A DNA stretch of 64,000 nucleotides from Podarcis liolepis. Its lineage: Eukaryota. The translations under genes and the position numbers were made by a program. Of the stretch, positions 13,101 through 59,441 are shown in pieces. Every line of letters starts with the position of its first letter. Position 1 is the first letter of the stretch. The notes beneath the pieces are model-generated. The model saw only the letters and a program-made list of their open reading frames with translations. It was not told the origin of the DNA and ran no database searches. The stretch is taken from NCBI GenBank assembly GCA_965112155.1, contig OZ218102.1. One strand, given 5' to 3'.

Positions 13101-13990
13101 TGAAACATTTTGTTTAAATAGAATAATGTGGCAGTGATCCAGTGAGCTCTTTATTAGCATGCTTCCAAAGGCTGGCTTGCTGGTGGCTGGACTAAAAGCA
13201 ACACCCTCCGATATTTCATAAACTACCTATGAGAGCAGAACTAGCCCTAACATCAGAGATCATTTACCAGCTCCCCCATGATGATATTTCCCCCCATTAG
13301 CTTTAAAAACAGCCAGTGGCACCTGATTTGGGTTGGAGATGTAGTCCTACATTTAATGACCCTTTTCCTTTGACTATTTCCAAGACTGTGAATAAGCCCA
13401 CTGAAACTCTTAGCAACAGGTGGAGGGGAGGAAACAGCGACGTCTCTGAGAGAGAAAATTTGGCTTGGGAGAACATGTGTTAGGAGCATAGTACCCCAAA
13501 CGCAGGGCCTCTCTGCCACACATTCTTCCATGCCTTATGTTCCACAGTGAAAAGCTTGAGGTCAAGAGGCAGGTTTCTTGTTTTCCCTCAGCCTCACTGC
13601 CAGCTGAATACCACCCATGATCTGGGTTCCATGCCATCTGAGGAAAGAGAGTTCTTAGCTAAATGCCTCTGCTCAGCTCACCCTTCCCTTTAAACCTCCC
13701 CCCCCGCAAGGTGCACTTTATCAATTAGCACAAGGTTTTGTTTGTGTCTTCTCAATGACATCTCAAAAAGTAGTAGTCGGTGGAGAGACAGCTTAGTCAG
13801 TTCATTGAGCAAAAAGAACAAAGGGTTAAACACAATCCTTTTTCCCTGTCTCTAATTACATTTCCTAATGCAAACTTATGATCTCTTGCTATTCTGCACA
13901 ATATCGTATTGCTGCCTCTCTCCCAGGTGTGAAGTGTTTTAAGTCTCCATAGAATTCCCCCTTAAATTGCCCACACATAGCTAGATACTG

Positions 13991-14171
13991 GTAGGTAGCC
14001 GTGTTGGCCTGACGCAGTAGAAATATATATATATAAAATAAAATTGTCCAGTAGCACCTTAGAGATCAACAAAGTTTGTGCTTGGTATAAGCTTTCTTGT
14101 GTATGCAAACTTCTTAGTTGGTCTCTAAGGTGCTACTGGACAAGTCATATTATTATTTTTATATATTTTTG
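13991..14171. mobile_element. Penelope-like element remnant: inverted pseudo-LTR fragments
   Basis: Similar to the 3' part of 25549-25923 in both orientations; 13-bp TSD TAGCTAGATACTG (13978-13990, 14172-14184). Confidence 0.8.
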
Positions 14172-17940: not shown

Positions 17941-18524
17941 TGATAGGATCTACTTGAAAATATTAGATTCTTTTTCATCACCATTAGTTGTTGAGGAATT
18001 GCTTAAAAAACAACAATTAAAAATTACAGTAGAGCTTCATCTGCTTTCTCACATCCTGTTTCCCACACTAGCCAACCACATGCTTCCAGGAAGTTCACAA
18101 CCAAGGCATTAAGGCAACAGCTCTTCCCTGCTATTGCTGTTCATATTCCCCATTCACATACTCATCTTCCATGAATGTGGCTAATCTCCTGTTGAAGACC
18201 GCTAAGCTCATGTCCATCACCACATCTCATTGCATGGGATTCCACAGATGAATGGTTCATTGTGTAAAATACCTCATTTGTCTGCCTTGACTTTGCTGCC
18301 CATTTCTTTTATTGGATGACACCAGCTTTAGTACAGTATTGTCAAAGCAGGAAGAACTTTCTGCACCCCATACCTCTGTGATTTCCATTCTTCTAAGCTA
18401 AACACCCAAAATGTTTTAGCCTTTCCTCAGAGGGGATGATGCTGCAATTCCTTGATCATTGTGGTTGACCTTTTTCTGCCCCTTTCCCAGCTCTGTGCTG
18501 TCCTCTTTGAAATACACTGTATAA

Positions 18525-18716
<192 letters not shown>

Positions 18717-21700
18717 TGGTTTTTTTTCTTGCACCACTTTGCTATGGTGAGCTCAGATCAAATAGGAAATACTTGAATCACACGTCTCATCACTTGGGAC
18801 CAACATTAAAAACATCTTTACTCACTCTCAGCTTATGCTGTTTCTTCTGATAATATCAGCGTCTTTAACTGGCAGGATTAGTAAAATGTTAAGGCAGAAA
18901 ATTGGTGTCTGTCTCCTTTTTCCCTCCCTTAGTTTTTTTCTGCTACCTTGTCAGTGAGTGGATTTTCCTAAATGTCCTTTTGGGCTAACCTGATTTTGAA
19001 GCCTCAAGTTTTTAAACCTGATTTATAAATCCTGTATAATGTTTCCATTCGTAACTTTTTGAAGTTTGGATATATAGAGGGAGAACTTGGCTATATACAA
19101 AATGATTAGTTTGGGGGCCTTTTTTACGTAAATATTTAAATATTAAAGAGGTATCAATGTGAAATTATGTACAATGAAATGACTTATTGGTGAAAATCAT
19201 TGTTGGCCAGAACACCAGATTATTTGTTGCTGTGCAATTGTTTTGTATAAAATTGCAAGAGAAATAGTCTGATATTCTGACTTATAAAGTAACAGCTGAA
19301 GTATGTGCCTGACAATTTCCTCCTACATATATATTTTATTTTTATCTGAAATAAGGAAAAATGGTCATGGCAAAGTGCTGTATATAAGCAGGCCTTCCTG
19401 CAAAACAAGGGTGAATGAGGCTTGAGTCATGCGAAGTATGTTCTAAGACAGCAGATGTGACACCTGTGAATAATCTGTTTAACAGACATAGTTCAATATT
19501 GAAAATATATTGAGGCCATTTTATAAAGAAATTGACTTGTTAAAACTAGTGACAACTCAGTTTTAAATGAATTGCATTCTGATTGACAATGTCCTTTACT
19601 AAGATGGGACTTTTATGTGTGTTGGTTTTTATCTGCTTTACAATTCAGGCTGTTTCTCTCTTTTTTATTATTATTATGTGCGTATAAATCAGCAGTTACA
19701 GTCCAGTTCAGGTCTAGCTGAAGCCCAAATGTTTTAAGAACACAGTCGATTGCGACGTTCTCCTGCACAAGCCTAGCCAAAATGGATTTGAATTGCGTGT
19801 GTGTGTAGGGGGTTTGCACAAGATAAATTCATGGTGGATTGTGCTGTTGGAGAACATTTTCAAATGTACTGATGGTGATTTGTTTACTATTGTCTGTCTC
19901 AGTGTCATGGGTGCTGATGGAAATGTCGTCTTTAATTATCCCATTGTTGGTACCTTACTCCTGTACGCAAGTTACTTGGGCATATAATTTGCTGTTTCGA
20001 AAGAAAACATTCTTCCAGATTAACTGTATTTGAGATAATAACCTTGAGTCCCTTTTTTTTTTGGTCATTGTTGTGCCCAAAATCTTCAGTTTGAAAGTGT
20101 GTTCCTTTGTGTGCTTCATTATAAGAACTACCATTGGGCTCCAGTCCACATGCTCTGGTGTGTGCACAGATAACTGTAGAAGCAGAACAGGACGGACTGC
20201 AGAATTGGGGAAAGCAGTGTGCAGGCAATGGCATGGGCATGCTGTGCTTTTCCTGACATTGAAGTGGTGGCACAGCCCCTGCTGATTCAGTTCTGTGTGG
20301 GCATCTGAGGGTTAACTGGAGTTCCAGATTATTATGATGTGTTGAGAAAGTTTTAAGTGCCACATAAGATCTCAGTCTGGAAAACCTTTCAATATTTGGT
20401 TCATCTACTTACCCCCCCCCCCCAGCAATATTACAAATATAATTGCTATGGTCTACTTGAGAATATAGAAGATGTAGAGTAATTGATATCCAATTGTGAC
20501 ATTCCACAAATGAGATTTCTCCTTCCTCTCCTCTTCCCTACAGCCCCCCTGTGCCCCCCCCCCAATTCTACTTGGTTGGGTGATCCTCTGGAGCAGGTTG
20601 GGGGCTGGGAATGTGGGGGGGGGGGCACATCTGCTGGTGCAACGGTTGATCTCTCCCATACACGAGTAAGTCTGATGTGTGGAAGAGGCTTTAATTTGAA
20701 AAGGTTTCTTTCCTCAAATTACAAAAACAGTGGCCTTGGACCTATATCTTGGCAGTAGGGCATTGGATATTCAGATTTTGGACACTATCTGGCCAGCATT
20801 AAGCACTTTAAAACCCATTGATGGAGAATGAAAGCTTGCTTCTCTCCCAGTGAAAACAATGGAGCTTACAAATGCTTAATTTTGGTTGAATCATGCCCAT
20901 CCTATACTTGAAAAAAACTGTGGCCACAGATTCTTAAAAAGCTTTAATTGGGGAGGCAAATTAACTATTGCATCTTAATTAGAAAAAAAAATACAGAATG
21001 TGTATAGAGTGATATGTTCTCCTAATATATGGAGTTCTATTGCAACGTGTCAGGTTGGTTTCTATAATTAAAATGAGTTGGCTCACTAATTGAAGCTACT
21101 ACTGTATTCCTTGGGAACTCAATTAATGCATTAGGATTTTGCATTTGGTTTATTCTTTTTATGTTATGAAATGAAATAGGCTGGTGGAATTATCTAAATC
21201 TGCCTTCCCCAACCTGCGGTTCACCTGATTTTCTGGACTACAACTCCCATCACCCCCCCCCCCCCAGCCAGCAGGGCCAGTATGGTCCAATAACGCCTGG
21301 AAGGCACAAGGTTGGGGCAGCCTGATCTAAGCTAAGATACAAGATCCCACAGCTGCAAATGAGTAATTGAAGTTCATTTTTTTAAATTTTCGAAATCACT
21401 TTGGATATCATTTTAAAAATTACGGTGTTTAGGTTGCCTTGGCCATGAAAACTTATTAGGAGAAAAATAAGGTAGATGGGTGTTAAAAATATTTCTTTCA
21501 TCTTGAATTGCTCAATTTCACATTTATCTAGTTCCTCTATTGTGCTTAAAACGTTACACACCTTCTTTAATAACAATTTGTGGGAATAGCATTTGTGACA
21601 CAATCCAGAACTAAATCCATTGTTCTATTGAAATCAGTAGACTGATCAGTCCATTGAGTCCAGTGGGTCTGCTCTGAGAATGACAAACGCTAGATACTGC

Positions 21701-23832
21701 CCTCTGTTTTTTAGAAACATTAGATGACACATTTCTGGTTGTATGGGTTCAACCTTGTCATTAAAACTGATGGATTTTTAAAATCATTGCTAACATACCT
21801 CTGAGAATTGTCACAAATTAGTTTTCTGAGCATCGCTGTGCTCTCTTTATTGGAGAAATGTTGTATATGACAGCTATTGTTTGCAGTGAAGATACCAAAT
21901 GGCCTAACATGTGGCTACATGGAATAGCTTATTATTTCCATTGAATGGTTTTCATGCTGGAGGGTTCTTTATGCTTTTTTAGATTCAGGTACTAAAGCAA
22001 AGAACCAAAGTGAAAAGACTATGGGCCATAAATAGTCTTTGATCACCAAAATTAAAGGAGTGGGTTTTTTGGGGTTTGTTTTCAGCTTGTTTTTTGGCAG
22101 TCTCTTTTCTATTTTCCTTGTTTGTGCTGCAGTATCTTCTAGGCTGTTGAACTGTGAGCATTCTTTTATCCCTCTGGCTGCATGCCATTGTGGCTTCTCT
22201 GTAGCAGGACCAGAAGTAAAAGTGAGCAGAGACAGTAGGCCTTCCTTAGCAACCAGACCTGGAAACGCGGTTGTGTAGCTTCAGAACCTTAAGAGCCTTG
22301 CCATTTTTAAAAAAGCCATTGCATGGCAAATGTGTTTAAACATCTTTTTGAAAAAGAAAAGAGCTGCAGAGGAGAAGTCCTTGAGCTTTGGCCTTCAAGC
22401 AGTTTTCTGCTTGCCTCTATCACCACTTTTCTACCCACACAGCAAAAAGATATTTTGAAAAGCAGTTGAGTGAAGCAGTCCTGAATTAAAGAAATGGGCT
22501 TGAGTGAGACAGGGTTCAGCAATTCCTCCCTCTGCTTAAGAGTACAGCTCCCATAGCTGCTTCCCCACATTTTCCAAAATAGTAGGGAGATTGTTATGTA
22601 GCTGTGTGCTACTTTAGCTTTGACCCACAGGAACATTTGGGACCATTCGCTTCCTGTCCCAGTGAAGAGATGTAGTTTTGAAAGATGGATTTCAGCAGTA
22701 AATGTGATTAAGACTTACTGCTGCCAAGGGGGATCTACCTTCCCATAGGATTCCACATTGCTGTGGGATCTGGTGAATAATGTGACTACCTGCATGTGAG
22801 TGATCCTGTGGATCTTGCCAGCTTAAAACCACATAGGTTCAAGCCACAAGAATGTGATTTCCACAGGACTGCAGATGTGGGAAGAGGTCCATAGTCATTC
22901 AAGATAGGAACTATGGGGAAACAGAATGAACTGTAAAAGTGCCACATTAAAAAAAAAAAGTTCAGGGTTTAAAAAATCAATACATTTTGCCCCAGATACT
23001 GCATGTATCCTTGAACAAGGAGAAGCAAAGCTTCATGTGGAAATGAATGTAAATGAAATTGCCCAAGCACTGCTTCCTGTCATTCATTTCACCAGGTCTT
23101 GTGATGGAGCCCCATGCAAACTCTATAGAAAAGAATAAAGCAGCAGTGATTGTACTCTTTTATGTCAGGAAACACTTTTTATGTGGTTTTACTGATGCTG
23201 CTGCTATTGCAGTTTACAATTAATACATCTATTTACCTCAAGGGGAAGCTGTCTTTTTAGCAGTAAAATAATTCGCTGAAGTTAAAGCTAAAAGCAGTGT
23301 GCAATTAAATCTCAAAATGAAGCCTACAAGTGTTCTCTGGGCTTTTGCTTTTTAGCAAAGATGAGAAAAATGTATAGAGTTGAAATAAAAAACTTCCTTG
23401 AGCCTATAATGCTTGAGAATTTATGCAGCAAATTCAGCAGAATAGAAATCCTTAGAAAATAACTGTTGGCTGCAAAATTCCACAAGCTGGGTTTTCTTTC
23501 TTCCTGCTTTAAGACTTCCACTTCACCCATTTGACTAATTTTTGAAATTTTTAAAGTAAATGTAATGTGTGTGTTCTGGGCTTGTATGAAAATTGTTTGC
23601 ATTTGTTGTCTTCTAAAGTGGCAAAAAGAGAGAACTGTTTTAAAAGGCTGTACACATATTAGACCAAGCTGAAAACATAACTGGATGACCAGTTGTTCAT
23701 TGTACTAATTGATTATTTAATGTAAATTCATTCATCTTGGTTGTTATTCTGAACTGCCTGAAAATGTGTCTATCATAACTTGAGTTATATTGTATGAATT
23801 ATTTATTTGTAATTGGACATTTACACTTCAAA

Positions 23833-23844
23833 AATAAAATTAAA
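23833..23844 (+). promoter_or_regulatory. Candidate distal ACSL3 polyadenylation signal (AATAAA + ATTAAA)
   Basis: Tandem hexamers after an AT-rich UTR-like tract, followed by a T/GT-rich stretch. Confidence 0.4.
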
Positions 23845-24006
23845 ATTGAGTTTCACAAGTTAATTTGCTTCCTGTTTTGTATTTTTCTAGAGAGTCACCC
23901 TGATGGGCCTTTAACCCTATTCCTTGCTTCATAGAATTAATGACAGTGCAAGCTTATATATTATATGCCTGCTCCATGGGAATTACCCCCAAGTAAGTGC
24001 ATATAC

Positions 24007-24860
24007 CAGGCTTTCTCAACCTTGGGTCCCTAGATGTCAAGACCCCGAGGCCTCCCTTTATGTTGAATAATAACACTTGGACATAGTATATTAGGGTAAA
24101 TGGGCAAATTTGGGCCACAACTTTATTGGTTACAGAATGTGAGCGGTATTGGATTAGGCATTGGCATTAAACTGACTATATCTGAATCCTGCCCACCATG
24201 CAGGTAGTCCAGTAAAGGTCAACCACCAATAGGGGGAGCCCTGTTGATGTACATCAACTAAGAGCTCCCCCAGGGTCCCCGATGGGGTCGTGACATGACC
24301 CTAGCCCCTACCCGGGCTTCAGACAAGATCCACACCCCCGGATCCCTTTAACGAAATACCCTTAAAATGGAGGGGCAGGTGATGGCCACACCTCCCCTCT
24401 CCCAAACCAGGTTTTACCAATGCCTAACCGCCAAACCTTCCAAAAGTTGTGACGATTGCTACGAGGTAGGCGAAAGCCAAATGGCCAGTACCAATTTGCC
24501 AAGTGGAAAAATTCCTACCAGGCCCCCTCAACAGGAGACCAACCGAGGTCCATAGCAAGGCCAATATGTCGAACGCTTGAAGGGAGGGCGGGAGATCTGC
24601 GGAAGCTGGAACGAGAAGGGAGATCCCTGGCCACGTGGCTGCTTAAAAGCACTAAGCCACGCCCTCCGGCCAGGGTCTCCCTAATGACACGGGGGCTTAG
24701 CAGGAGGCCACATGGCCTGTCCACAACACCACCCCACCTGGAAGTGGAGCGGCCTTGTTGGACTACCATTCCCATCATCCCTGACTGCTGCCCCTGCTGG
24801 CTCTGGATGATGGGAGTTGTAGTCCAACAACATCTGAGGACCCAAAGTTGAGAAAGCCTG
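24007..24860. mobile_element. Palindromic hAT MITE split by a 718-bp insertion
   Basis: TIRs CAGGCTTTCTCAAC / GTTGAGAAAGCCTG; the two halves rejoin into the CCAGATGTTGTTGGACTAC core seen intact at 47910-48047. Confidence 0.85.
24037..24754 (-). mobile_element. TSD-less insertion, probable DIRS/Ngaro-type terminal-repeat remnant
   Basis: Clean insertion with no TSD; minus-strand AATAAAGTTGTGGCC motif; GC-rich and structured. The family call is an inference. Confidence 0.5.
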
Positions 24861-25090
24861 GAATACTGTATATCATTGCAGCCAAACTCAGAATTGGGAA
24901 TGCCTTCTTCAGTTGGAAGAGGAAGCAGTGTCTGCAACCCAGGACTAAAACGCTCACTTCTTTGATGCCTTTATGATGCGCCTGTGCTCCATGCCCCCTG
25001 TTCCTGTGACCTAGTCTGTCTTATGTGAACAGCAGCATCAGCAGTGGAAGGGAGAAACTGAGGTGTGCCTTGAGGCATCCTTATCTTGTA

Positions 25091-25369
25091 CAGTGGTGCC
25101 CCGTAAGACGAATGCCTCGCAAGACGAAAAACTCGCTAGACGAAAGAGTTTTCCGTTTTTTGAGTCGTTCCGCAATACGAATTTCCCTATGGGCTTGCTT
25201 CGCAAGACAAAACGTCTTGCGAGTTCTTGCGAGTTTGTTTCCTTTTTCTTAAAGCCGCTAAGCCGTTAATAGCCGCTAAGCCGCTAATAGCTGTGCTTCG
25301 CAAGACGAAAAAAACGCAAGACGAAGAGACTCGTGGAACGGATTAATTTCGTCTTGCGAGGCACCACTG
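25091..25369. mobile_element. Tc1/mariner-type MITE, CAGTGGTGCC(C/T)CGCAAGACG family
   Basis: TA TSD, TIRs and repeated CGCAAGACGAA subterminal motifs; related to 29011 and 62591. Confidence 0.9.
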
Positions 25370-25548
25370 TATAAGCAACCAAGGGCCAGAAAAAGTTTGC
25401 TTTCAAAAGCAGCCCACCGTTCCAAATTCCTGTGAGCAATTGTGCATTTTTTGCATTTTCTTAAATGGCGAAGCGCAGTATTAGGTGGAGTTGTGTCGTG
25501 CTGTAGTCTCGCAACTCCTTGGACAGTGTTTAGTCCCCTTTGGGTTTC

Positions 25549-25923
25549 ATTACCAAACTTAAAACCATGGAGAGACCTGGTTTGAACAAAGACATTGGAT
25601 TCTTATTATACATGACTAAGCCATTTTTCACCTTCTCACCCCTTGCCTTTTCCTGTAAGACCTATTGCAGTTGTTAAGAGTCGTCAACAGGCTCATCTCA
25701 GCTATCTGCCAATCTCCCATTCCCACCACCCTTCTGAGTAATACCCCTCTCCACCTTCTCACTATATAGAAGGATCTGGCAACTTCTGTTTCAGTGTATC
25801 TGAAGAAGTGTGCATGCACACGAAAGCTCATACCAAGAACTAACTTAGTTGGTCTTTAAGGTGCTACTAGAAGGAATTTTTTTATTTTGACTATGGCAGA
25901 CCAACATGGCTACCTATCTGTAA
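25549..25923 (+). mobile_element. Penelope-like retroelement 3' fragment (end of GIY-YIG ORF plus pseudo-LTR)
   Basis: Starts with ITKLKTMERPGLNKDIGFL (GLN.D motif typical of PLE endonuclease C-termini), then a TATATA box and hammerhead core; 9-bp TSD TTGGGTTTC (25540-25548, 25924-25932). Confidence 0.8.
25796..25833 (+). ncRNA. Minimal type I hammerhead ribozyme motif
   Basis: GTAT-CTGAAGA-A-GTGTGCATGCACAC-GAAA-GC-TC-ATAC: both core boxes are intact, with stem I GTAT/ATAC, a palindromic stem II and a minimal stem III. Confidence 0.8.
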
Positions 25924-26519
25924 TTGGGTTTCTGGGAACATTTTGGCAAGAAATACAGAATGTGCATATTTCATGTGAAGAAGAAGAAATCTTGAGAATG
26001 TTACATAAATGCCAACACTGAAAATGCCAACACTGATGTAGAACAGATGGTCCAGCAGCTTTACTCTTTTATAGAGGGTTTGGTCCCATTGGAAATGGTG
26101 CTTATTTCCTGATTCTGATTCCACAGCACTTTCTGAGGTTTAGTATACACTGCCGGCAGAAGCTGGGGTGCTGTAATTGGACAGGAGTTGTCTGTTTAAA
26201 AGCCCTAGTGAACACACAGTGATTTGTACAAGCGGCTACATCGCTCCTAACATCATATTGCTCATTGATGCTTGGCTGAACTAGAAACACTTTCCATTGA
26301 ACTATAGTGCGTTTGAGGTAATACAAAGCTTTCTGCAGCATTTGATCTGCGTCTGTTCTTGCATGTCATTGCTTCTTGTAGCAGTTGCCAAATGATGCAC
26401 ATTAATTTTATTATATTCCATAACATTTATATACTGCTTGATTGTCAAAAAGAAAAGAAAAACCCTGTAGCAGTTTGTAGGTTTTACCTCTGTAGCCTCT
26501 CCCATAATAACCTGTAGTG

Positions 26520-26657
26520 CAGGTATAGGCAAACTTTGGGCCTCCAGATGTTTTGGGATTACAACTCCCATCATCCCTAGCTAACAGGACCAGTGGTCAG
26601 GGATGATGGGAGTTGTAGTCCCAAAACATCTGGAGGCCCAAAGTTTGCCTATTCCTG
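26520..26657. mobile_element. Palindromic hAT MITE
   Basis: Long inverted arms; 8-bp TSD CTGTAGTG/GTGTAGTG. Confidence 0.88.
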
Positions 26658-27855
26658 GTGTAGTGGGAGAGATTAATGAGTAGGGTCCTACTTTGGAGTT
26701 CTTGAAGAAGCAGAAGCCCCCTGAACTTCAGCAGTTGACCACAATTTTTCAATGAGAGAACCTAACTTGGGCTAGTTAAGGTTGTGCCTTCCATATGTTG
26801 TTGGTCTGCAAATCCTAGCAACGTGACTCAGCCTAGAGAATCATCTGGGATGATGAGATTCTGGAGGGGCACCACATTGACTATCCCAATCTAACTTCTG
26901 GGACTGTGATTGCAGAACTTGTACGTTGTGCCGTTTTAATAGGATTCATTCCGTCATAAACTGGCAAAGTTCCTCAAACGACCTTGACTCAATCTGACGT
27001 GGTTACTCCCACGCTGTCAATACTTTGGGGATTTCATTGCTTTCATCTGTTTGGTTCTTTTCCCTCTCTCACTTTCCTTAAAGAAAAAAGAACCCCTCCC
27101 CCCCCAAATATTCCAGCAGTTGTGAGCATAGCTTTCATACTTCCTCTGAAATAGCATACAAGCAACAGTGTAAAGTTTGTTGTGGACAGTCGAAGCTGAA
27201 CTTGCTGTGTGAGGCATAGGACTAGTGTTATTCTATCTGGACTGGTTACTGTTTTTGGACCCAAAAGTTCTGCGTTTCACCTTTGGAATCCTATACTACA
27301 GGGACCAGGATATCCAAAATACCTATCACTTGGGTCCAACATCTGAGACCCTGCTCCATGTTCCTCTGCCACGGGGGTGGTGGGTGAGCACACATGAGGC
27401 AGGGTCTTTTCAGTCTTGGTACTGCAACTCTTGCTTGACCTTCCAAGGAAGGTCTGCTTGGCATAATCAGTGCTGCCTTTTTTAGTGAATGGTGACTACT
27501 TGGCCGTTTAGGATGGCCTTGTGATAAAAATCAGACTGGTATTCTGCTGTTGTTGAGGCAATATGATTGTCTTAAATGGCATTGAGAGCGGGCTGGGTTT
27601 TTTATGCACTTTTTTATTTTTGGAAATGTTTTAACAATTCAATTTTTTCTTAGGAATGCTCTTGACTGTTGTTAATTTACTTGGGCATCCATTGAGATCC
27701 CCTGAACTAAGAAATACTGTAAATATGTAATCACTAGGGGCTACCACCACTGATCACTCTGCTCACCAACCCTTGCCACCTCTTCTGCTACCCTTATGCC
27801 CCACCTGATCAACACATACTCATTTAAGCTGACAGCACTGCAGATATTTGTACAT

Positions 27856-27986
27856 CAGGTGTGGGAAACCTTTGGCCCTCCAGATGCTGCTGAACTACAA
27901 TTCCCATTAGCTCCAGAAAGAATGACCAAGGATGCTGTGAGTTATTGTTGGGCAACATCTGGAGGGCCAAAGGTTCCCTACACCTG
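27856..27986. mobile_element. Palindromic hAT MITE (older)
   Basis: CAGGTGTGGGAAACCTTTGGCCCTCCAGATG ... CATCTGGAGGGCCAAAGGTTCCCTACACCTG. Confidence 0.8.
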
Positions 27987-29010
27987 AGGTAGAGGTTGCC
28001 TTCACATGTAGCAAAACCTGCTTAGGTCTGATACATCTATCTGTGAATCTTGCCATTGGATAAATTTGTAGAAAAGTTGCAGCTCATTTAAAAGAATGCA
28101 ACATTCTTTCTGTACAGTCCTAATTTCTTCAGCTATCTTCAGCTAGTGGGAAATCAAGTTAACCATCATCAATTTATTCCATTGATTTCAATGTAATGAA
28201 AGAATTCCTAACTTTGCCTGGGTTCAACCCAAAGCAATATTAATTTTAAATATAAGATTCCCCTACTCAGAAGGGTGTGCATTTTTCAATTTCACCAGCG
28301 ATTGGAGTAAAAGCTGTCTGAAATTCTCATTAGATTTCTGAACAGTGGAAAGCTGTGCACTGTGGCTAAACTTTCCATTCACGATTCAAAAGGCTCAGAT
28401 GAACAGGTCAGCTTGGACTGAACATTTTAACTTTTCCAAGATTGACCCTTGGACAAGAATTCTTCTTTATCCCAGCCACATATGTCGTGGAGGATCACAC
28501 ATTCGGAGGAAGACATGACTGATATTCTTATGCACTGTTTTAGACTCGGATGCATTTACTGTTGAAGTAACATTTTTGCAATTAATTTTGAGTGTTGCAA
28601 TGAAAGAAAGTAGATACAGAGTTGCCTGACACCAGACCATTTATTCTTGCACTCACCCAACTTTTCAAAAGCTCCAGAGAAAATTTCAGTTTGTGCTTTC
28701 CTCTGTGATCATCCAAGCAATAAAGTGGACTGCTTATTAATGCTCTTATAATGTTTAAAATAATTTTTTTTCTAATCTCATTTGATTGTTTTTCTTTTTT
28801 GCACCCTAAGAATATTGGCCGGGGGACTTCTGACTCTCCACATGGTTCTGACACTGTTGCAGAAGTATCTGGATGTCTCCCAGGCCAACTCCTTTTTAAA
28901 GCAAACTATGAGTCACTGGTTTCTAAGATGCTATTAATTGAGCAATCACATTTCTAACACAACTCTGAGCATTGGTTTGTATATATGAGTCATGCAAAGG
29001 AATCGTAATA

Positions 29011-29410
29011 CAGTGGTGCCTCGCAAGACAAAAAGAATCCGTTCCACGAGTCTCTTCATCTTGCGGTTTTTTCGTCTTGCGTAGCAAGCCCATTAGCGGC
29101 TTAGTGGATTAGCGCTATTAGCGGCTTAGCGGGCTTAGCGGATCAGCTGGTAAACGGCTTAGCGGATCAGCTGATAAGCGGCTTAGCGGATCAGCTGGTA
29201 AACGGCTTAGCAGATCAGCTGATAAGCGGCTTAGCGGCTTGGGAAAAAGGGGGGGGAGGAAAAAAACCCCCGCAGGAACTCGCAAGAAATTGTCGTCTTG
29301 TGAGGCAAGCCCATAGGAAATTCGTTTTGCGAAGCACCTCCAAAACGGAAAACCCTTTCGTGTAGCGGGTTTTCCGTCTTGCGAGGCATTCGTCTTGTGG
29401 GGCACCACTG
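29011..29410. mobile_element. CAGTGGTGCC-family MITE with an internal 24-bp tandem array
   Basis: TA TSD and TIRs; opposite orientation to the 25091 copy. Confidence 0.9.
29133..29228. repeat. Minisatellite, 4 x 24 bp (GCTTAGCGGATCAGCTGRTAARCG)
   Basis: Units start at 29133, 29157, 29181 and 29205. Confidence 0.92.
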
Positions 29411-29412
29411 TA

Positions 29413-29563
29413 CAATGGTACTTTGGTTCTCAAACTTCAATTGGAAGCTGCTGAAGACGCATCCGACATTTGTTTGCAAACCGGAACACTTACTTCTGGG
29501 TTTGCTGCATTCGGGAGCCGATTTATTCGACAACTAAACTGTTTGGGAGCCAAGGTACCACTG
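29413..29563. mobile_element. Tc1/mariner-type MITE (short)
   Basis: TA-CAATGGTACTTTGG ... CCAAGGTACCACTG-TA; shares its left TA with the preceding MITE. Confidence 0.8.
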
Positions 29564-29592
29564 TACATATTTACTCAGAAGTAAGTCCCCCT

Positions 29593-29940
29593 GACGCGGG
29601 TGGCGCTGTGGGTTAAACCACAGAGCCTAGGTCTTGCCGATCAGAAGGTTGGTGGTTCGAATCCCCATGATGGGGTGAGCTCTCGTTGCTTGGTCCCTGC
29701 TCCTGCCAACCTAGCAGTTCGAAAGCACGTCAAAGTACAAGTAGATAAATAGGTACCGGTCCGGTGGAAAGGTAAACGGCGTTTCCGTGCACTGCTCTGG
29801 TTTGCCAGAAGCGGCCTAGTCATGCTGGCCACATGACCCGGAAGCCGTATGCTGTCTCCCTCAGTCAATAAAACAAGATGAGTGCCACAACCCCAGAGTC
29901 GTCCACAACTGGACCTAATGGTCAGGGGTCCCTTTACCTT
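29593..29940 (+). mobile_element. Sauria SINE
   Basis: GACGCGGGTGGCGCTGTGG head, B box GGTTCGAATCC and CCTTTACCTT tail; TSD TAAGTCCCCCTGA. Confidence 0.92.
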
Positions 29941-30295
29941 TAAGTCCCCCTGAGTTCATTGTGTTCAGTTAACCAATCATGTGAATGGTGAAAACAGCAG
30001 GTTATTCTGTGGGAGGGTAATATAAATATTCTCACAGTAAATAGACGCATGAAATTGTTGTTTAGATAACACCAATAAATGAATACTTGTGTATGGCTGT
30101 TTTTGCAAGTCATGCATAAGAGAGCAATTTTATGGGGCGGGGGAGTGGGGAAGAATCCATGGGAGAGAGATCACAAGTCTAAAGTCCTGTTTGGCTTATA
30201 CAGGCAGCCCCTGGAAAAGAGGGTGGTGTTTTTCCCTTAAAAAAACAAAAACAGAAGAACAGTTCTGCTTGATCAGACCTGTGGCGCATCTAGTA

Positions 30296-30515: not shown

Positions 30516-32923
30516 TACAGTATTCTGTTCTCATAGTGGCCAGCCAGTTATGGAAACCTGCAAGCAACAGTACTCTCCCTACTTATATTCAGAGGTACAC
30601 TGCCTCTGAGAGTGAGCATAGCTACTGTGGCTAGTAGCCATAGCACACACATGCATGCACATGCTAACACACACACACACACACGAGCACATAGCATTGG
30701 CACTTGCTTTTTCCATATAAAAAATAACATTTATCCCCCCCCCCCCCGCCGCTTCTATTTATGTTTCACTGTGACTATATTGCCATGGCACATTCTGCAC
30801 CAAAGGGTGATTTAAATAAAAAATGAGTTCAATCAAAAATATTTATATGCTGCTTTTCTAGTCAAATCCTGTCCAAAGTAGCTTCCAACAATAAAAATTA
30901 CAAGTAGTATATTGAATAATCAATATTACAAAAAAGAAACTAAAAATAAAGCAGATCTAAACTCAACTTGTTAAAAGTCCTATGTTTATGCGTGTGCTTC
31001 AAAGGGTTTGCTATTTGAAATTCGCTGCACTTAAGCACAAATGAAATAACAAAACCGATATGTTTTGGAACTGTCTTTCATACAAAGTTACATCTCACAG
31101 GCTCATATGCTTTCCAGATGAAGAATATGAACCCTGCCTGGTTCCATCAGCTGGCTAGACCCAGCCTGGCTTCTCAAATGCATGAAGTTTGCCAAAAGAG
31201 TTTTCCATGATGATATCAGATGTCACTGCTGGAACTAGAACACTCTGTAGTTGTGAGCATCAATACTAGCTGTTTCTCCAAAACAAAGGCCAGCTGCCGC
31301 GGAAAAAACTCCTCTCAATAACTAGCTTGATGTCGGGTAGATCAGAGAACAAAACTCTTGCTGTATTTAAAGCAAAATCAGATTTCCCAGGGAGAAAAGA
31401 GGGATGTTTTATTAGAGGAAGTGATCAATAAAGAAATCATCATGAGTTTGGACTGACTGTTGATAAAGACTTCCCAGAGTAATAAACACAGTATCTCAGC
31501 AGCTTAAGCACATCATTTGGGCTGGTTTCCTGTAATACCTTTTCATGAGCATCTCAAACAGTAGATGCTTATATGTCTCAAGCCACAATCTCATTGTCAT
31601 TGTGGCTACTTGAGTTTCCAGAGATGAAGGTGGTTCAAGGATAAGGATGGGAAAAATCTGTCTATTTTGGTTCCTTTCCATTTTTCATTTGTCCACTCCT
31701 TAGTTTTCCACATTTCCACATCAGTGCCCTCATGAAAATTCATCAGAACCACACCCCAATCAGCTAATATACACTTTTTTGGTATGCAATTTTACCTAAT
31801 AAACCTATCATTGCAAAGCAATTTTCTGCAGTAAAAAGGTGTTTGTCATTTTCACAAATATTGGTATTTGTATTCACTCTTTAGTATGTGTATTTTTTAA
31901 AAAGACGTTATTTTATTATATTGCAAAGTGTGGAGAAATGCAAATTTCAAAGAATGGTTATGTTTCTGTCTGTGTATTGTTCTGGAAATTATAAATTAAG
32001 TAAGTTCATCTGTAATATTCAAGGAACACCCTAGTCTGCATATTTAAGGAACTACATAAACTGGTCCAGGGCAACCAGCATGAGAAATGGCAATCTCATC
32101 ACCATCGACATTATAGAAACATATAGCTTTGCTGTGTTGTTATAATTCAAATGAATTGCATTGTAATGTTTGTCTTCATTCTATGATCTGAGTTGGCTTG
32201 AGCAATCTCTTCTGGAATGAAAAGACAGTGTGAAAAATTTGATAGGCAGTCGAGTCCCATGGCAGACTGTGTGGGGCATCCCTTGTTTGAATGCATTCTC
32301 ATGTCAGGATCTCCATAAAAAAACACTGAAAGCAGCATTTCCAGGGAGGAAAATGAATGATGCTGTGGAAAATAAGTGGGAGGAAGAATTATGCACACAC
32401 ACACAAAAAACTGTGTCTTTATACTTAATGCAGAAACTGACTCATACAGGCATGTTTTCCTTCAAGTGGAACTGTAGGTAGGCAGCCGAGTTCCTAAATG
32501 TTCCTGCCGATATATTTTCCTGAAACATCAGCGTAATATCATTGCTAGTGATGTAACATCAGCACAGCAGCTGGTACGTCAAATCGCAAGTGTTTCTTTG
32601 CTGGCACAATGCGTCTCAGAACAGGACTGTAAGAGAATCGGAAGCAGAGCCAGCAGACCTGCTGCTGTGAAACTTCGTGCGTATTCAACATTGACTTCGT
32701 TCAAAGTCATACGTGCATAAAGGGGGGGGGGGATAAAGTATTGCATATCAGGGAATGGGGTGCAGGGGTGAAAGGAAAGGTGCTAAAGAGGGATTGGCCA
32801 TTCATTAAAAGTGTGATGGGGAGGGATTTTAAAGGACACTTTAGAAGTGTGGTATTCTTTGCCAACTTGCTTCCCAAACATGTTTGACAGTTATGGCTCC
32901 TCCACACAATCTATTCACGGAGC

Positions 32924-33071
32924 CAGTTACAGATAGGTAGCTGTGTTGGTCTGCCATAGTCAAAATAAAAAAATTCCTTCCAGTAGCACCTTAAAGAGCA
33001 ACTAAGTTACCAACTAAGTTACCAAGAGCTAACTTAGTTGGTCTTTAAGGTGCTACTGGAAGGAATTTTTT
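32924..33071. mobile_element. Penelope-like element remnant: inverted pseudo-LTR ends
   Basis: About 45-bp inverted arms matching 25841-25888; 12-bp TSD TATTCACGGAGC (32912-32923, 33072-33083). Confidence 0.82.
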
Positions 33072-34209
33072 TATTCACGGAGCATTCGTCTTGACTTGTT
33101 TGCACTATTTTTGTTTAGAGGCCACACGATGCCTAGTCTTTATTGAGCATTTGTTCTGATTTGTTTACAGGCTGGTTATAAAGCAATGAGCTGAGCATTC
33201 ATTCTGCATTCATAATGGTTTGCTTGTGGGGTATTTATGCCACACTTTTCACAACTTTGGATTCCAGAATATGATCCCATATAGTGTCCCCTCCCTCAAA
33301 TTACTATTTCATCCAGTGTAGTAAATAGAGTCACTTCAAGTGATGATCATTTTTTAAATTCAAAAAGTCTGTTTGTTTTTACCAAGAGTTAAATATGCCT
33401 TCTCAACGTCTCCAGAAGTTTCGCTCTTAATGACATCTTCAATATCTTTGCCAGTCTGCTAAAGTGCAATGATCAAATAAATCTTTAAAAAAGAGCTTTT
33501 CCTCGTCACTTTCGTAACTGCGAAAAAGGCCTGCTTTTTTTTAAAAAAGCAGATTTGAAGTACTAAGGTGACATAGCACCTTAGTCTACTTTAATTGGTC
33601 AATTTATGGGATGAGCTTGAATCCTTCCTGCAAAATACTGACAATCTGGAGGCACTCTTAGGAGTAACATGGTGGGATGGCATTTGCAGGAGCGTCTCGT
33701 CCTCCCAAAAAAACACCACCCCATTGTTGAGAATTCTACTCATAACCCCCCCCCAAAAAAAAACCTCATGTGGAAATTTGGAGAACCGTGAATTTAAGAC
33801 TAGAAAATGGAGAAAGCAAAATTGACATATTTGTCCAACTCTGCTTGAAATACCCTATTTCTCTTGTCACTGAAAACAGCAGGCAAGTAGAGCTTTCTGG
33901 GATGTGTACCCTTTGAATAAAGTGCCACAAATGTTTCTTTTTGCTGGCAAGCACCCTGAGTCCTTTAAAACACTTATATTTAAGCACTAGCCTGCTAGCC
34001 CCAGTGAAGGGCATGCAGGCAAGTGAGTGGGCTGTCAAAAGGATGAATGAAGTGCTCCATCTTTCCTCTAGGCCCAACATAGTAACCAGGTGGGCTGCCA
34101 GAGGAGGAAAGACTTCTCCACATCCAACAGAGATTTGGAGTGCGCTGCTTCAGGAGAGATGGACTCTCGGTCTCTCTTCTGATAGCCAACCCCCACCCCC
34201 AGCAGGATT

Positions 34210-41393: not shown

Positions 41394-42082
41394 AAGCTCA
41401 ACATCAAAAAAATGAAGATCATGGCCACTGGGCCAATCACCTCCTAGCAAATAGAAGGGGAAGAAATAGAGGCAGTGAGAGATTTTACTTTCTTGGGCTC
41501 CATGATCACTGCAGATGATGACAGCAGCCACAAAATTAAAAGATGCCTGCTTCTTGAGAGAAAAGCAATGACAAACCTAGACAGCATCTTAAAAAGCAGA
41601 GACATCACCTTGCCAACAAAGGTCCGTATAGTTAAAGCTATGGTTTTCCCAGTAGTGATGTATGGAAGTGAGAGCTGGACCATAAAGAAGGCTGATCACC
41701 GAAGAATTGATGCTTTTGAATTATGGTGCTGGAGGAGACTCTTGAGAGTCCCATGGACTGCAAGAAGATCAAACCTATCCATTCTTAAGGAAATCAGCCC
41801 TGAGTGCTCACTGGAAGGACAGATCGTGAAGCTGTGGCTCCAATACTTTGGCCACCTCATGAGAAGAGAAGACTCCCTGGAAAAGACCCTGATGTTGGGA
41901 AAGATTGAGGGCACAAGGAGAAGGGGACGACAGAGGACGAGATGGTTGGACAGTGTTCTCGAAGCTACCAGCATGAGTTTGACCAAACTGCGGGAGGCAG
42001 TGGAAGACAGGAGTGCCTGGCGTGCTCTGGTCCATGGGTTCACGAAGAGTCGGACACGACTAAATGACTAAACAACAACAAC
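41394..42082 (+). mobile_element. BovB (RTE clade) LINE, 5'-truncated
   Basis: ORF VKAMVFPVVMYGSESWTIKKA...RIDAFELWCWRRLLRVPWTARRSN...SRTRLND; (CAA)n tail; in-frame TAG at 41444. Confidence 0.95.
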
Positions 42083-55290: not shown

Positions 55291-55803
55291 ATGTTCACAA
55301 TGGATCATTTGAACATGACCCAGCCCATGCTTGCTGCTGAAAGCACAGGACCTGCTGCCTCCACTCTTGAGAAAGGCGGAGGGAACGGAAACGAATACTT
55401 CTATGTCCTGATCGTGATGTCCTTCTACGGCATCTTCCTGATGGGCATCATGCTGGGCTACATGAAGTCCAAGAGGAAGGAGAAGAAATCCAACTTGCTG
55501 CTGCTCTACAAGGATGAGGAGAGGGCATGGGGACAGGCTGTCAAGCCTCTGCCCACCATCTCGGGACTGAGGTCTGTCCAGATCCCCATGATGTTCAGCA
55601 TGCTGCAAGAGAGCATGGCACCGGCTCTCTCCTGCACCCTCTGCTCCATGGAAGGCAGCAGCGTGAGCGAGTCTTCCTTGACAGACGTTCACCTCACTAT
55701 TCAAGAGGAAGTGGCTGATGCCGAGCTGGGAGAAACAGGCGAAGTGGCTCTCCTCGATGACAGCAGTGAAGGTTCTTCGGAAAGCATCCACCAAAATTCC
55801 TAG
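55291..55803 (+). CDS. KCNE4: Potassium voltage-gated channel subfamily E regulatory subunit 4 (MiRP3), 170 aa
   Basis: [38 protein letters not shown] region, LLLL motif and C-terminal [13 protein letters not shown]; ttgcag acceptor at 55264; start ATG at 55291. Confidence 0.98.
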
Positions 55804-57884: not shown

Positions 57885-59360
57885 GCGATCACTCTTTTGT
57901 GAATTTTCTGCGGTGTGTGCTCAGTACTCCAATGGGGTCTCTGTGACTCAGGATTCCCTGGGGCAAATCTCACCTTTTCCATGAACTCTGCCTTGAGTAA
58001 GTTGCTGTGTCTCAAACTCAGTCCTCCCTTGCTTTCCCACCACTTCAATATGGAGCTAAGGTTGTTGTAAGGATTGCAACAGACCAGAATTACAGTGGCA
58101 TGACTTCAACATTAGCCAAATTTTTTCCTCCCCCATCTAGCCTGATAAAGAGTTCTGGGGGACTCAAAAGCTTGCACACAGTGTGTATTTTGAGCCAACA
58201 TACCTACTTTTATTTTGTGCAACAAGATAATGTTTCTGAAGCACTTGGTAGCACAGAACAAGGCAGTGGGCATTCTAGTTTATGGAAATTGTGGCTGAAA
58301 TTGCCACTGAAAGAAGTGAACAAACAGGTCTGCTTTTGATGGTAGGAGTGGGGAACCTTTTTCAGCTGAATGACTGCATTCCTTCACAGGGAACCTTTTG
58401 GGGGTTGCATTCCAGTGGTGGGCAGAGGAAAAAATGTGTGGGGCAGTACGAGATTTAAGGTGGTTCCCCTACACACGGTGCCAAGCCGAGCGGGCACAGA
58501 ACTGAGAAAATAACTGAGAAGATCCATTTGGGAGCACCAAATTCTCACAGGTGCCATATTACAAAAGATTACTAAAGTCTTCCCCTGTGTGGGTCAATGA
58601 ATAAGACTCTTACCTTTCTACAACAGGCTGCATCCCAGACATGCAAAATTCACTCTTTTTGCACGCATCTCTCTCTCTCTCCTCTCCATCGAGGCAAGAG
58701 GCATGATAATAGTTCAAGGACAGATTTTGGCCATGCAAAACACGAAGAGGCATAAAGCAGGGCTGAGAAGAGGGGAGGTCTGGAGTGGAGGAGGGCCAGG
58801 GGAGCATCTCAAAGGCCCGATAGACTAGGGGTGCTGCATTTGGCCACAGGACACAAGGTTCCCACCCCAGGCCTGGGGAGAGTCCTGAGGGCTGGATAAA
58901 AAGGCTCAGAGGGGGCTGAATTTGGACCATGGACCTGGACTTCCCTACCACTGCACTGCTACAAGTTTTCTTAACCTGAATGTGGAATGCCGTTCTGGTT
59001 GAGCATTTGGACTTGTATCTAATATACAACAAGATCCCCTTGAAAGTCTGTGGCGGCACTAGCGGTGATAATCCCAAGCAACTAGTTCCCAAATTGCCAC
59101 CCTAATATAACTGGGACATTGCTTCTCCTGGGATTAACGCTGTCTAATGTGAAAGATTACCTTACAGCTTTCCAGTGATGACATTCAAACGCTAAGAGCA
59201 TCAATATTGCCATCTTAGGACATAGCAGTGGTTGAGCCTGGAAGCTGCCAACCAACAATTAGCACTTGAGCAGCAGACTGAGCAGACACACAGGTCAACT
59301 GGTCACAATCTTCCTCACTATGTTATTCTATTTAAATTACAGTTTCTAAATTTGCCTCTA

Positions 59361-59441
59361 CTAACTTAGTTGGTCTTTAAGGTGCTACTGGAAGGAATTT
59401 TTTTATTTTGACTATGGCAGACCAACACGGCTACCTATCTG
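59361..59441 (+). mobile_element. 81-bp Penelope-like pseudo-LTR end
   Basis: Near-identical to 25840-25920; 13-bp TSD AAATTTGCCTCTA (59348-59360, 59442-59454). Confidence 0.85.

Follow-up and report, generated by a model that had tools for sequence, protein, structure and literature searches.

A hammerhead motif lies in the same orientation as an acyl-CoA synthetase gene (which we take to be ACSL3), just past its end, in a 64-kb stretch of Podarcis liolepis DNA (hereafter the window), and its position raises the question of whether it is a self-cleaving RNA acting on transcripts of that gene or simply part of the mobile element in which it is embedded. The analyses described below indicate that the locus is very probably a standard minimal hammerhead ribozyme (min-HHR) of a Penelope-like element (PLE), carried by a recent, solo, truncated copy that is missing from four other samples and likely inert.

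Results

The motif at 25796-25833 and its predicted folding

The motif is organized as the initial annotation had described it, with a stem I formed by GTAT (25796-25799) and ATAC (25830-25833), the core CTGAAGA (25800-25806), a self-complementary stem II that is a perfect palindrome (25808-25821), GAAA (25822-25825), and the palindrome AGCT (25825-25828) followed by C17 at 25829, after which cleavage is predicted; TATATA (25763-25768), about 30 bp upstream of the hammerhead, was likewise confirmed in the sequence. An extra A at 25807, between positions 9 and 10.1, was missing from that annotation and is typical of PLE min-HHRs. The hammerhead core CUGANGA...GAAA...NUH is found at 25800-25806, 25822-25825 and 25827-25829, and the 10.1-11.1 pair is G25808-C25821. 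According to the part of PMC4209133 used here, the hallmarks of min-HHRs are the extra nucleotide after position 9, G10.1-C11.1, and palindromic positions 15.2/16.2; the motif shows these together with every other layout feature of PLE min-HHRs that can be read from a single sequence, and its identity as a minimal type I hammerhead of a PLE pseudo-LTR (pLTR) is upheld. The annotation had also described a 1-bp stem III within the palindrome: the palindrome is present, but the stem cannot close within a monomer because a 2-nt loop would be required. With palindromic 15.2/16.2 (AGCU, 25825-25828), an unclosable helix III, and a double hammerhead in which all pairs are standard, the motif has a design predicted to cleave as a dimer, as the annotation had proposed.

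One match to the motif was found in the 64-kb window and none in 100 shuffles, and a generic hammerhead scan of both strands returned the same motif as its sole match. The Infernal search against Rfam that had been suggested as a check gave no hammerhead model among 15 hits at E<=10 in 22000-30000; we infer that this likely reflects models expecting a helix III.

Folding predictions point to a weak monomer, in which stems I and II together reach -6.0 kcal/mol, compared with -5.5 kcal/mol for stem II alone (intramolecularly 5 bp with a CAUG loop). For RNAs starting at 25793-25796, the probability of stem I varies from 0 to 0.87 and depends strongly on the 3' boundary. With at least 16 nt of upstream sequence, the core is predicted to be paired (0.64-0.99) and stem I has a probability of at most 0.16 in all 25 contexts examined. 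The double hammerhead is predicted at -11.1 kcal/mol and the 14-bp stem-II duplex of two free motifs at -30.6 kcal/mol. We infer that the window hammerhead is likely inactive.

Table 1. Coordinates of the features discussed, in window positions
Feature	Position	Strand	Basis or remark
Acyl-CoA synthetase gene, last exon and 3' UTR (context, outside the element)	18555..23850	+	Exon translations, stranded RNA depth
Left target-site duplication	25540..25548	+	7 bp, or 9 with 2 bp common to the element
Solo 5'-truncated 3' end (pLTR and tail) of a Penelope-like retroelement	25549..25923	+	375 bp
GIY-YIG endonuclease domain, final ~19 codons, then a 5-bp deletion relative to the family	25549..25605	+	Translation, tblastn against the 910-aa ORF, alignment
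TATA-like box, likely element promoter (putative function)	25763..25769	+	Sequence; unchanged in covering copies
Predicted hairpin pairing upstream sequence with the CUGAAGA core in read-through RNA	25782..25809	+	ViennaRNA MFE, pair probabilities
Pile-up of copy 5' ends	25792..25799	+	42/102 sampled arms, 32/71 loci, DNA-run contig ends
Minimal type I hammerhead motif, PLE	25796..25833	+	Layout of the published consensus and turtle motif; predicted cut 25829/25830
PLE tail: opening of the ORF (start codon, first 10 codons)	25893..25923	+	MADQHGYLS, start of the 910-aa ORF
Right target-site duplication	25924..25932	+	Same 9 letters as 25540-25548

The window copy is a truncated PLE end

In order, the window copy contains the endonuclease tail, the 3' UTR and likely promoter with the TATA box, and the ribozyme, followed by the 10 codons that open the ORF (Table 1); of that ORF it retains only the two ends. 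The peptide encoded at 25549-25605, ITKLKTMERPGLNKDIGFL, is the stretch of ~19 residues that closes the endonuclease domain; the upstream peptide that the initial annotation called GIY-YIG-like is thus an endonuclease tail, but the GIY-YIG motif itself lies at residues 808-860 of the full ORF. The best genomic relatives, among the 40 best-scored candidates, are 97-98% identical to the window copy from 25547 to about 25923 and run on upstream into the GIY-YIG frame, and the window copy is therefore 5'-truncated. Its identity to the intact 3,008-bp unit of the family is 93%, and the TATA-like box shows no substitutions in the 30-31 copies that cover it.

A young, abundant element family

The exact 38-mer of the motif has 9,879 matches (4,999 + 4,880) in the 1.57-Gb genome, or about one exact copy per 159 kb, against none for a reversed control, and the segment downstream of the cut site has 16,938. 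Five tandem stretches, selected for paired hits and reached by walking upstream from relatives, contain intact units spaced 3,008 bp apart that are 99.9-100% identical and have open 926-codon frames in all five, the intact arrays carrying two or three ribozymes. From its first ATG, which corresponds to window position 25893 (64 nt past the predicted cut), the ORF encodes 910 residues with a reverse transcriptase (RT) and, at the C terminus, a GIY-YIG domain; at locus L097 these score 45.6 bits (RVT_1) and 25.2 bits (GIY-YIG), both above the Pfam cut-offs, and a PDB search with the ORF returned weak RT matches alone (best E 0.037). Residue 770 marks a CX4CX2C linker, CNKPRCQLC, which conforms to the CX2-5CxxC linker between RT and endonuclease (EN) given as the mark of Neptune and Nematis in the relevant part of PMC8557442. 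Two-armed loci account for 31 of the 71 sampled, with a one-sided tail in 29 of these 31, and the single RT plus C-terminal GIY-YIG ORF, partial tandems, inverted truncated arms, and one-sided tail are all those of EN+ PLEs. The element thus appears to be of the Neptune/Nematis type, an assignment to the pair and to neither clade alone.

Loci L097-L101 comprise intact multi-unit and inverted arrays that are 99.8-100% identical within and near-identical across loci on different contigs, which suggests that this subfamily is active currently or has been very recently. A C17-to-U variant forms a subfamily of its own. At one locus (L135, G000:C1 about 2,830,030-2,830,100), the ribozyme (about 25798-25832) has been deleted almost exactly and the flanks kept. 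Another locus (L050:131-2398, G000:C9 about 3,250,970-3,253,240) holds a 5'-truncated PLE copy inserted in frame within a LINE ORF2, and the resulting open frame of 756 codons comprises an APE-type endonuclease, part of the PLE RT, and GIY-YIG; this LINE-PLE frame is probably a chance fusion.

Copy ends and the RNA of the element

The ends of copies were collected from the first 100 listed of the 16,938 downstream-segment matches, which all lie within 4.6 Mb of the start of contig C1 and represent 71 loci, stubs starting after 25833 being left out by design. With a looser match (102 arms), 42 arms start at 25792-25799, 20 at 25800-25825, 4 at 25826-25833, and 36 upstream; with a stricter match, 39 of 100 arms start at 25792-25797. 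The most upstream start per locus falls at 25792-25799 in 32 of 71 loci and at or after 25823 in 2, and the four arms starting near the cut site correspond to three inversion junctions and one internal deletion. The same position stands out in four sequencing runs taken as DNA (the run kind is not on record), where 40-45 contigs per run have a loose 5' end at 25796 and the summed depth increases about threefold past 25800.

Because this pile sits about 31-33 nt past the TATA box, a transcription start is its likeliest reading, somewhat more probable than not. A stop of the RT induced by the 25782-25809 hairpin could also produce the pile, in keeping with the 32 of 42 ends that abut an inverted arm. 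A link to the splice-acceptor-like AG at 25793-25794 could be envisaged as well, but none of the 42 arms carries donor-side sense sequence upstream, the splice check having yielded one short sense match away from any splice junction. No description of the start site of this family was found in the open literature searched, Repbase/Dfam and subscription papers lying outside it, and both the family and its start site may have been described before.

The 3' ends fall into two groups, near 25883-25892 (47 of 100) and at 25918-25927 (41 of 100), though some of the short ends reflect ungapped extension over a run of Ts and are artefacts. Since 98 of the 102 sampled arms span the cut site, reaching at least 8 nt upstream of it, RNA that was uncut or re-ligated likely served as the template for the copies. 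Together, these data suggest that the ribozyme likely marks the start of the element's RNA, which would be copied without having been cut (or after re-ligation).

Conservation of the ribozyme region

Comparison of the window subfamily with the intact unit shows no change at the 40 positions of 25794-25833, 1 in 59 at 25834-25892, and 17 in 245 upstream; changes being near nil throughout 25794-25892, it is the whole 5' RNA region that is conserved and not the ribozyme alone. Preferential conservation of the core was also looked for among dead copies, which decay without clear preference: positions were changed in 5 of 954 cases in the core, 13 of 1,240 in stem II, and 15 of 1,082 upstream (8 of 985 once three subfamily sites are removed), counts that comprise few events. 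Within the genome, none of 95 variants was compensated at one stem II pair.

These observations bear on the possibility that this family has lost ribozyme function and retains the motif only within a conserved 5' RNA or promoter region. Both the extent of conservation over 25794-25892 as a whole, beyond the core, and the lack of compensatory change within the family speak for such a loss, as does the anole PLE, in which cleavage is reported in the part of PMC11167929 used here to be dispensable for insertion in vitro. On the other hand, the anole ribozyme, which needs the element protein, does cleave in its presence, with C3/G8 rescue (PMC11167929, same part), and the lizard motif has kept the core residues and shows, in a single comparison by eye with the turtle motif of PMC4209133 (in the portion used here), one compensatory pair each in helices I and II. 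We consider a loss of ribozyme function unlikely, although it would be compatible with the overall reading favored here, and both may hold.

A recent and probably polymorphic insertion

In all four DNA runs (organisms A, B, C, and D), contigs join 25539 to 25924 across an empty site, with 9 letters at the junction fitting both sides, and the depth at the empty site equals that of the flanks (82.6 in A, 36.2 in C, 20.1 in D, and 15.6 in B). No contig with a filled junction was found among the matches listed from the four runs. Organism A, the nearest match, has a single mismatch over 617 letters of the right flank and is therefore likely the species of the window or a very close one. The insertion is recent and likely polymorphic. 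A host-co-opted, gene-associated ribozyme was considered and rejected, the orthologous site being empty in the four runs from four organisms rather than fixed for the insertion.

A solo pLTR might also act as a small promoter, its TATA box driving, from about 25794, a short non-coding transcript into the flank. PLE pLTRs are known to hold promoters, and the TATA box and putative start are intact in the window copy, but the insertion is likely polymorphic and RNA reads of the family split evenly by strand (106 versus 111), as expected from passive transcription of many copies, in runs from organisms that may well lack the insertion and would then not reveal RNA started at the locus; we regard such promoter activity as very improbable.

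The acyl-CoA synthetase gene and read-through RNA

The last exons of the synthetase gene give clean translations. The polyA signals AATAAA (23833) and ATTAAA (23839) lie 1.96 kb upstream of the hammerhead, confirming its placement on the strand of the gene and about 2 kb past the polyA site. In stranded raw reads from organism B (run X24, of which about 12% was read), a related species whose DNA run has the empty site, sense RNA depth is 5.5-26.7 in all bins of 18400-23852, then 0.39, 0.17, and 0, and it is 0 in the unique bin 26149-26435; these values reflect steady-state and not nascent RNA. In two additional runs, contigs stop at 23826 and 23809. The drop in depth after 23852 and these contig ends support the distal polyA signal at 23833 and little stable read-through.

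It had been proposed that the window copy actively cuts read-through RNA of ACSL3, affecting termination or downstream transcription. The shared strand, the distance of 1.96 kb from the polyA signal, and catalytic residues that are all intact are in keeping with this idea, and nascent RNA may include the motif, since Pol II transcription normally continues beyond polyA sites. However, the insertion is absent in the four DNA runs, read-through RNA is near zero (in a related species and at steady state), and no second intact hammerhead motif was found in the 64-kb window to serve as a partner in cis. The core is predicted to be masked in all 25 read-through contexts, and free motifs are predicted to favor the stem-II duplex over the double hammerhead. 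By chance alone, a same-strand exact copy within 2 kb is expected at about 0.6% of gene ends given the 9,879 copies. No read-end piles were found at 25829/25830 among the places listed (4 of 7), but ordinary RNA sequencing is ill-suited to this purpose and the result is not evidence. A search among sequencing runs listed no RNA run as containing the motif, which likewise says nothing about its expression. Lacking a cis partner and predicted to misfold in read-through RNA, a solo copy would not meaningfully cut ACSL3 transcripts, and we give the proposal hardly any weight.

Other features of the window

Three other family stubs occur in the window, all without an intact core. The first (about 13986-14160) is older (about 73%) and two-armed; it belongs to a related subfamily, its ribozyme has decayed, and it is located upstream of the last exons of the synthetase gene, likely within an intron. 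The second (32923-33075; 33020) is a head-to-head stub without the ribozyme core, one arm of which begins at about element position 25831, close to the cut site, where an inversion junction carries a short duplicated sequence. The third (59360-59441) is an 82-bp stub that starts at element position 25839 and is flanked by a duplication of about 12 bp. The window also contains an intact 170-aa single-exon KCNE-family gene at 55291-55803 (Pfam ISK_Channel), presumably KCNE4, and a 189-aa ORF without a Pfam match at 41502-42071 that resembles the 3' end of an RTE/BovB-type LINE. Hairpin repeats at 24751-24834, 26547-26630, and 27854-27988 scored below threshold against Rfam mir-5408, MIR9486, and mir-1298; they are likely of MITE type and not microRNAs, because the first two collect RNA reads originating at many other loci.

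Discussion

The copy ends suggest a likely model in which transcription of tandem units would begin with the first bases of stem I, about 31 nt downstream of the TATA box, and reverse transcription would start at two internal positions, one immediately preceding the ORF and one immediately within it, yielding the short and the tailed 3' ends. Most copies would stem from RNA whose ribozyme is uncut (or re-ligated). Cleavage, for its part, would require two motifs pairing their AGCU palindromes in a double hammerhead, probably plus the element protein; in PMC4209133, as far as the part used here goes, single min-HHRs did not cleave and dimers were cleaved weakly.

A further and rather doubtful possibility is that the promoter-started 5' motif alone is the enzyme, cutting the motif 3 kb downstream as an asymmetric dimer and serving as a brake that diverts full-length copies to stub copies. 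Upstream bases would then mask the core in read-through RNA, leaving only the TATA-driven 5' motif able to act, and the cut would remove the 3' RT start, giving the stubs of ~100-130 bp beginning at the ribozyme that make up nearly half of the loci.

The single locus is of small importance, since some 10,000 identical copies exist, most of them dead. The family is of more use: young, homogeneous, and intact, it preserves the two ends of its RNA template across thousands of copies and offers a convenient system for distinguishing cleavage for translation, circle formation, or self-limitation from template preparation.

Several known systems invite comparison. Non-LTR retrozymes (bioRxiv 10.64898/2026.07.22.740005, in the part used here) share with the window copy a type I hammerhead related to those of PLE pLTRs, but they are non-coding tandem repeats with a ribozyme per unit, whereas the window copy is a solo remnant of a coding element. 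A retrozyme, which needs at least two consecutive non-coding ribozyme units, was accordingly rejected for this locus, where the window has a single motif and no tandem array. The EN+ PLEs of the Neptune/Nematis type (Craig et al. 2021, PMC8557442, in the sections relevant here) resemble the Podarcis element in their single RT plus C-terminal GIY-YIG ORF, CX2-5CxxC linker, partial tandems, inverted 5'-truncated arms, and one-sided tail of 30-40 bp; in contrast to them, the duplication flanking the window copy is clear, 7-9 bp long, and set in non-microsatellite DNA. In Anolis carolinensis, PAc (Poseidon_Ac; Frangieh et al. 2024, PMC11167929, in the part consulted) is likewise a lizard PLE with a pLTR hammerhead, with two internal RT start sites that give the tail and uncut RNA as the insertion template. 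It belongs, however, to the Penelope/Poseidon clade and has its start codon inside the ribozyme, unlike the Podarcis element, with its CX2-5CxxC linker and an ATG 64 nt downstream of the cut.

The closest likeness is to the min-HHR of the turtle Chrysemys picta bellii (Cervera and de la Pena 2014, PMC4209133, in the portion drawn on here), which has the same CUGAAGA core with an extra nucleotide, G10.1-C11.1, 4-bp helix I, GAAA-G-C-U palindromic helix III, and location in a pLTR. No lizard is among the rows of Fig. S3 examined in that paper. The Podarcis motif differs in that its helix II, a perfectly palindromic 14 nt, has a 4-nt loop, and in that position 17 is C. Its family is very homogeneous (9,879 identical copies), in contrast to the high variability reported for most genomes in that portion of PMC4209133, and it exists, as do the published PLE min-HHRs described there, as thousands of mostly solo copies. 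The window motif is a real and ordinary example of this known kind of PLE hammerhead.
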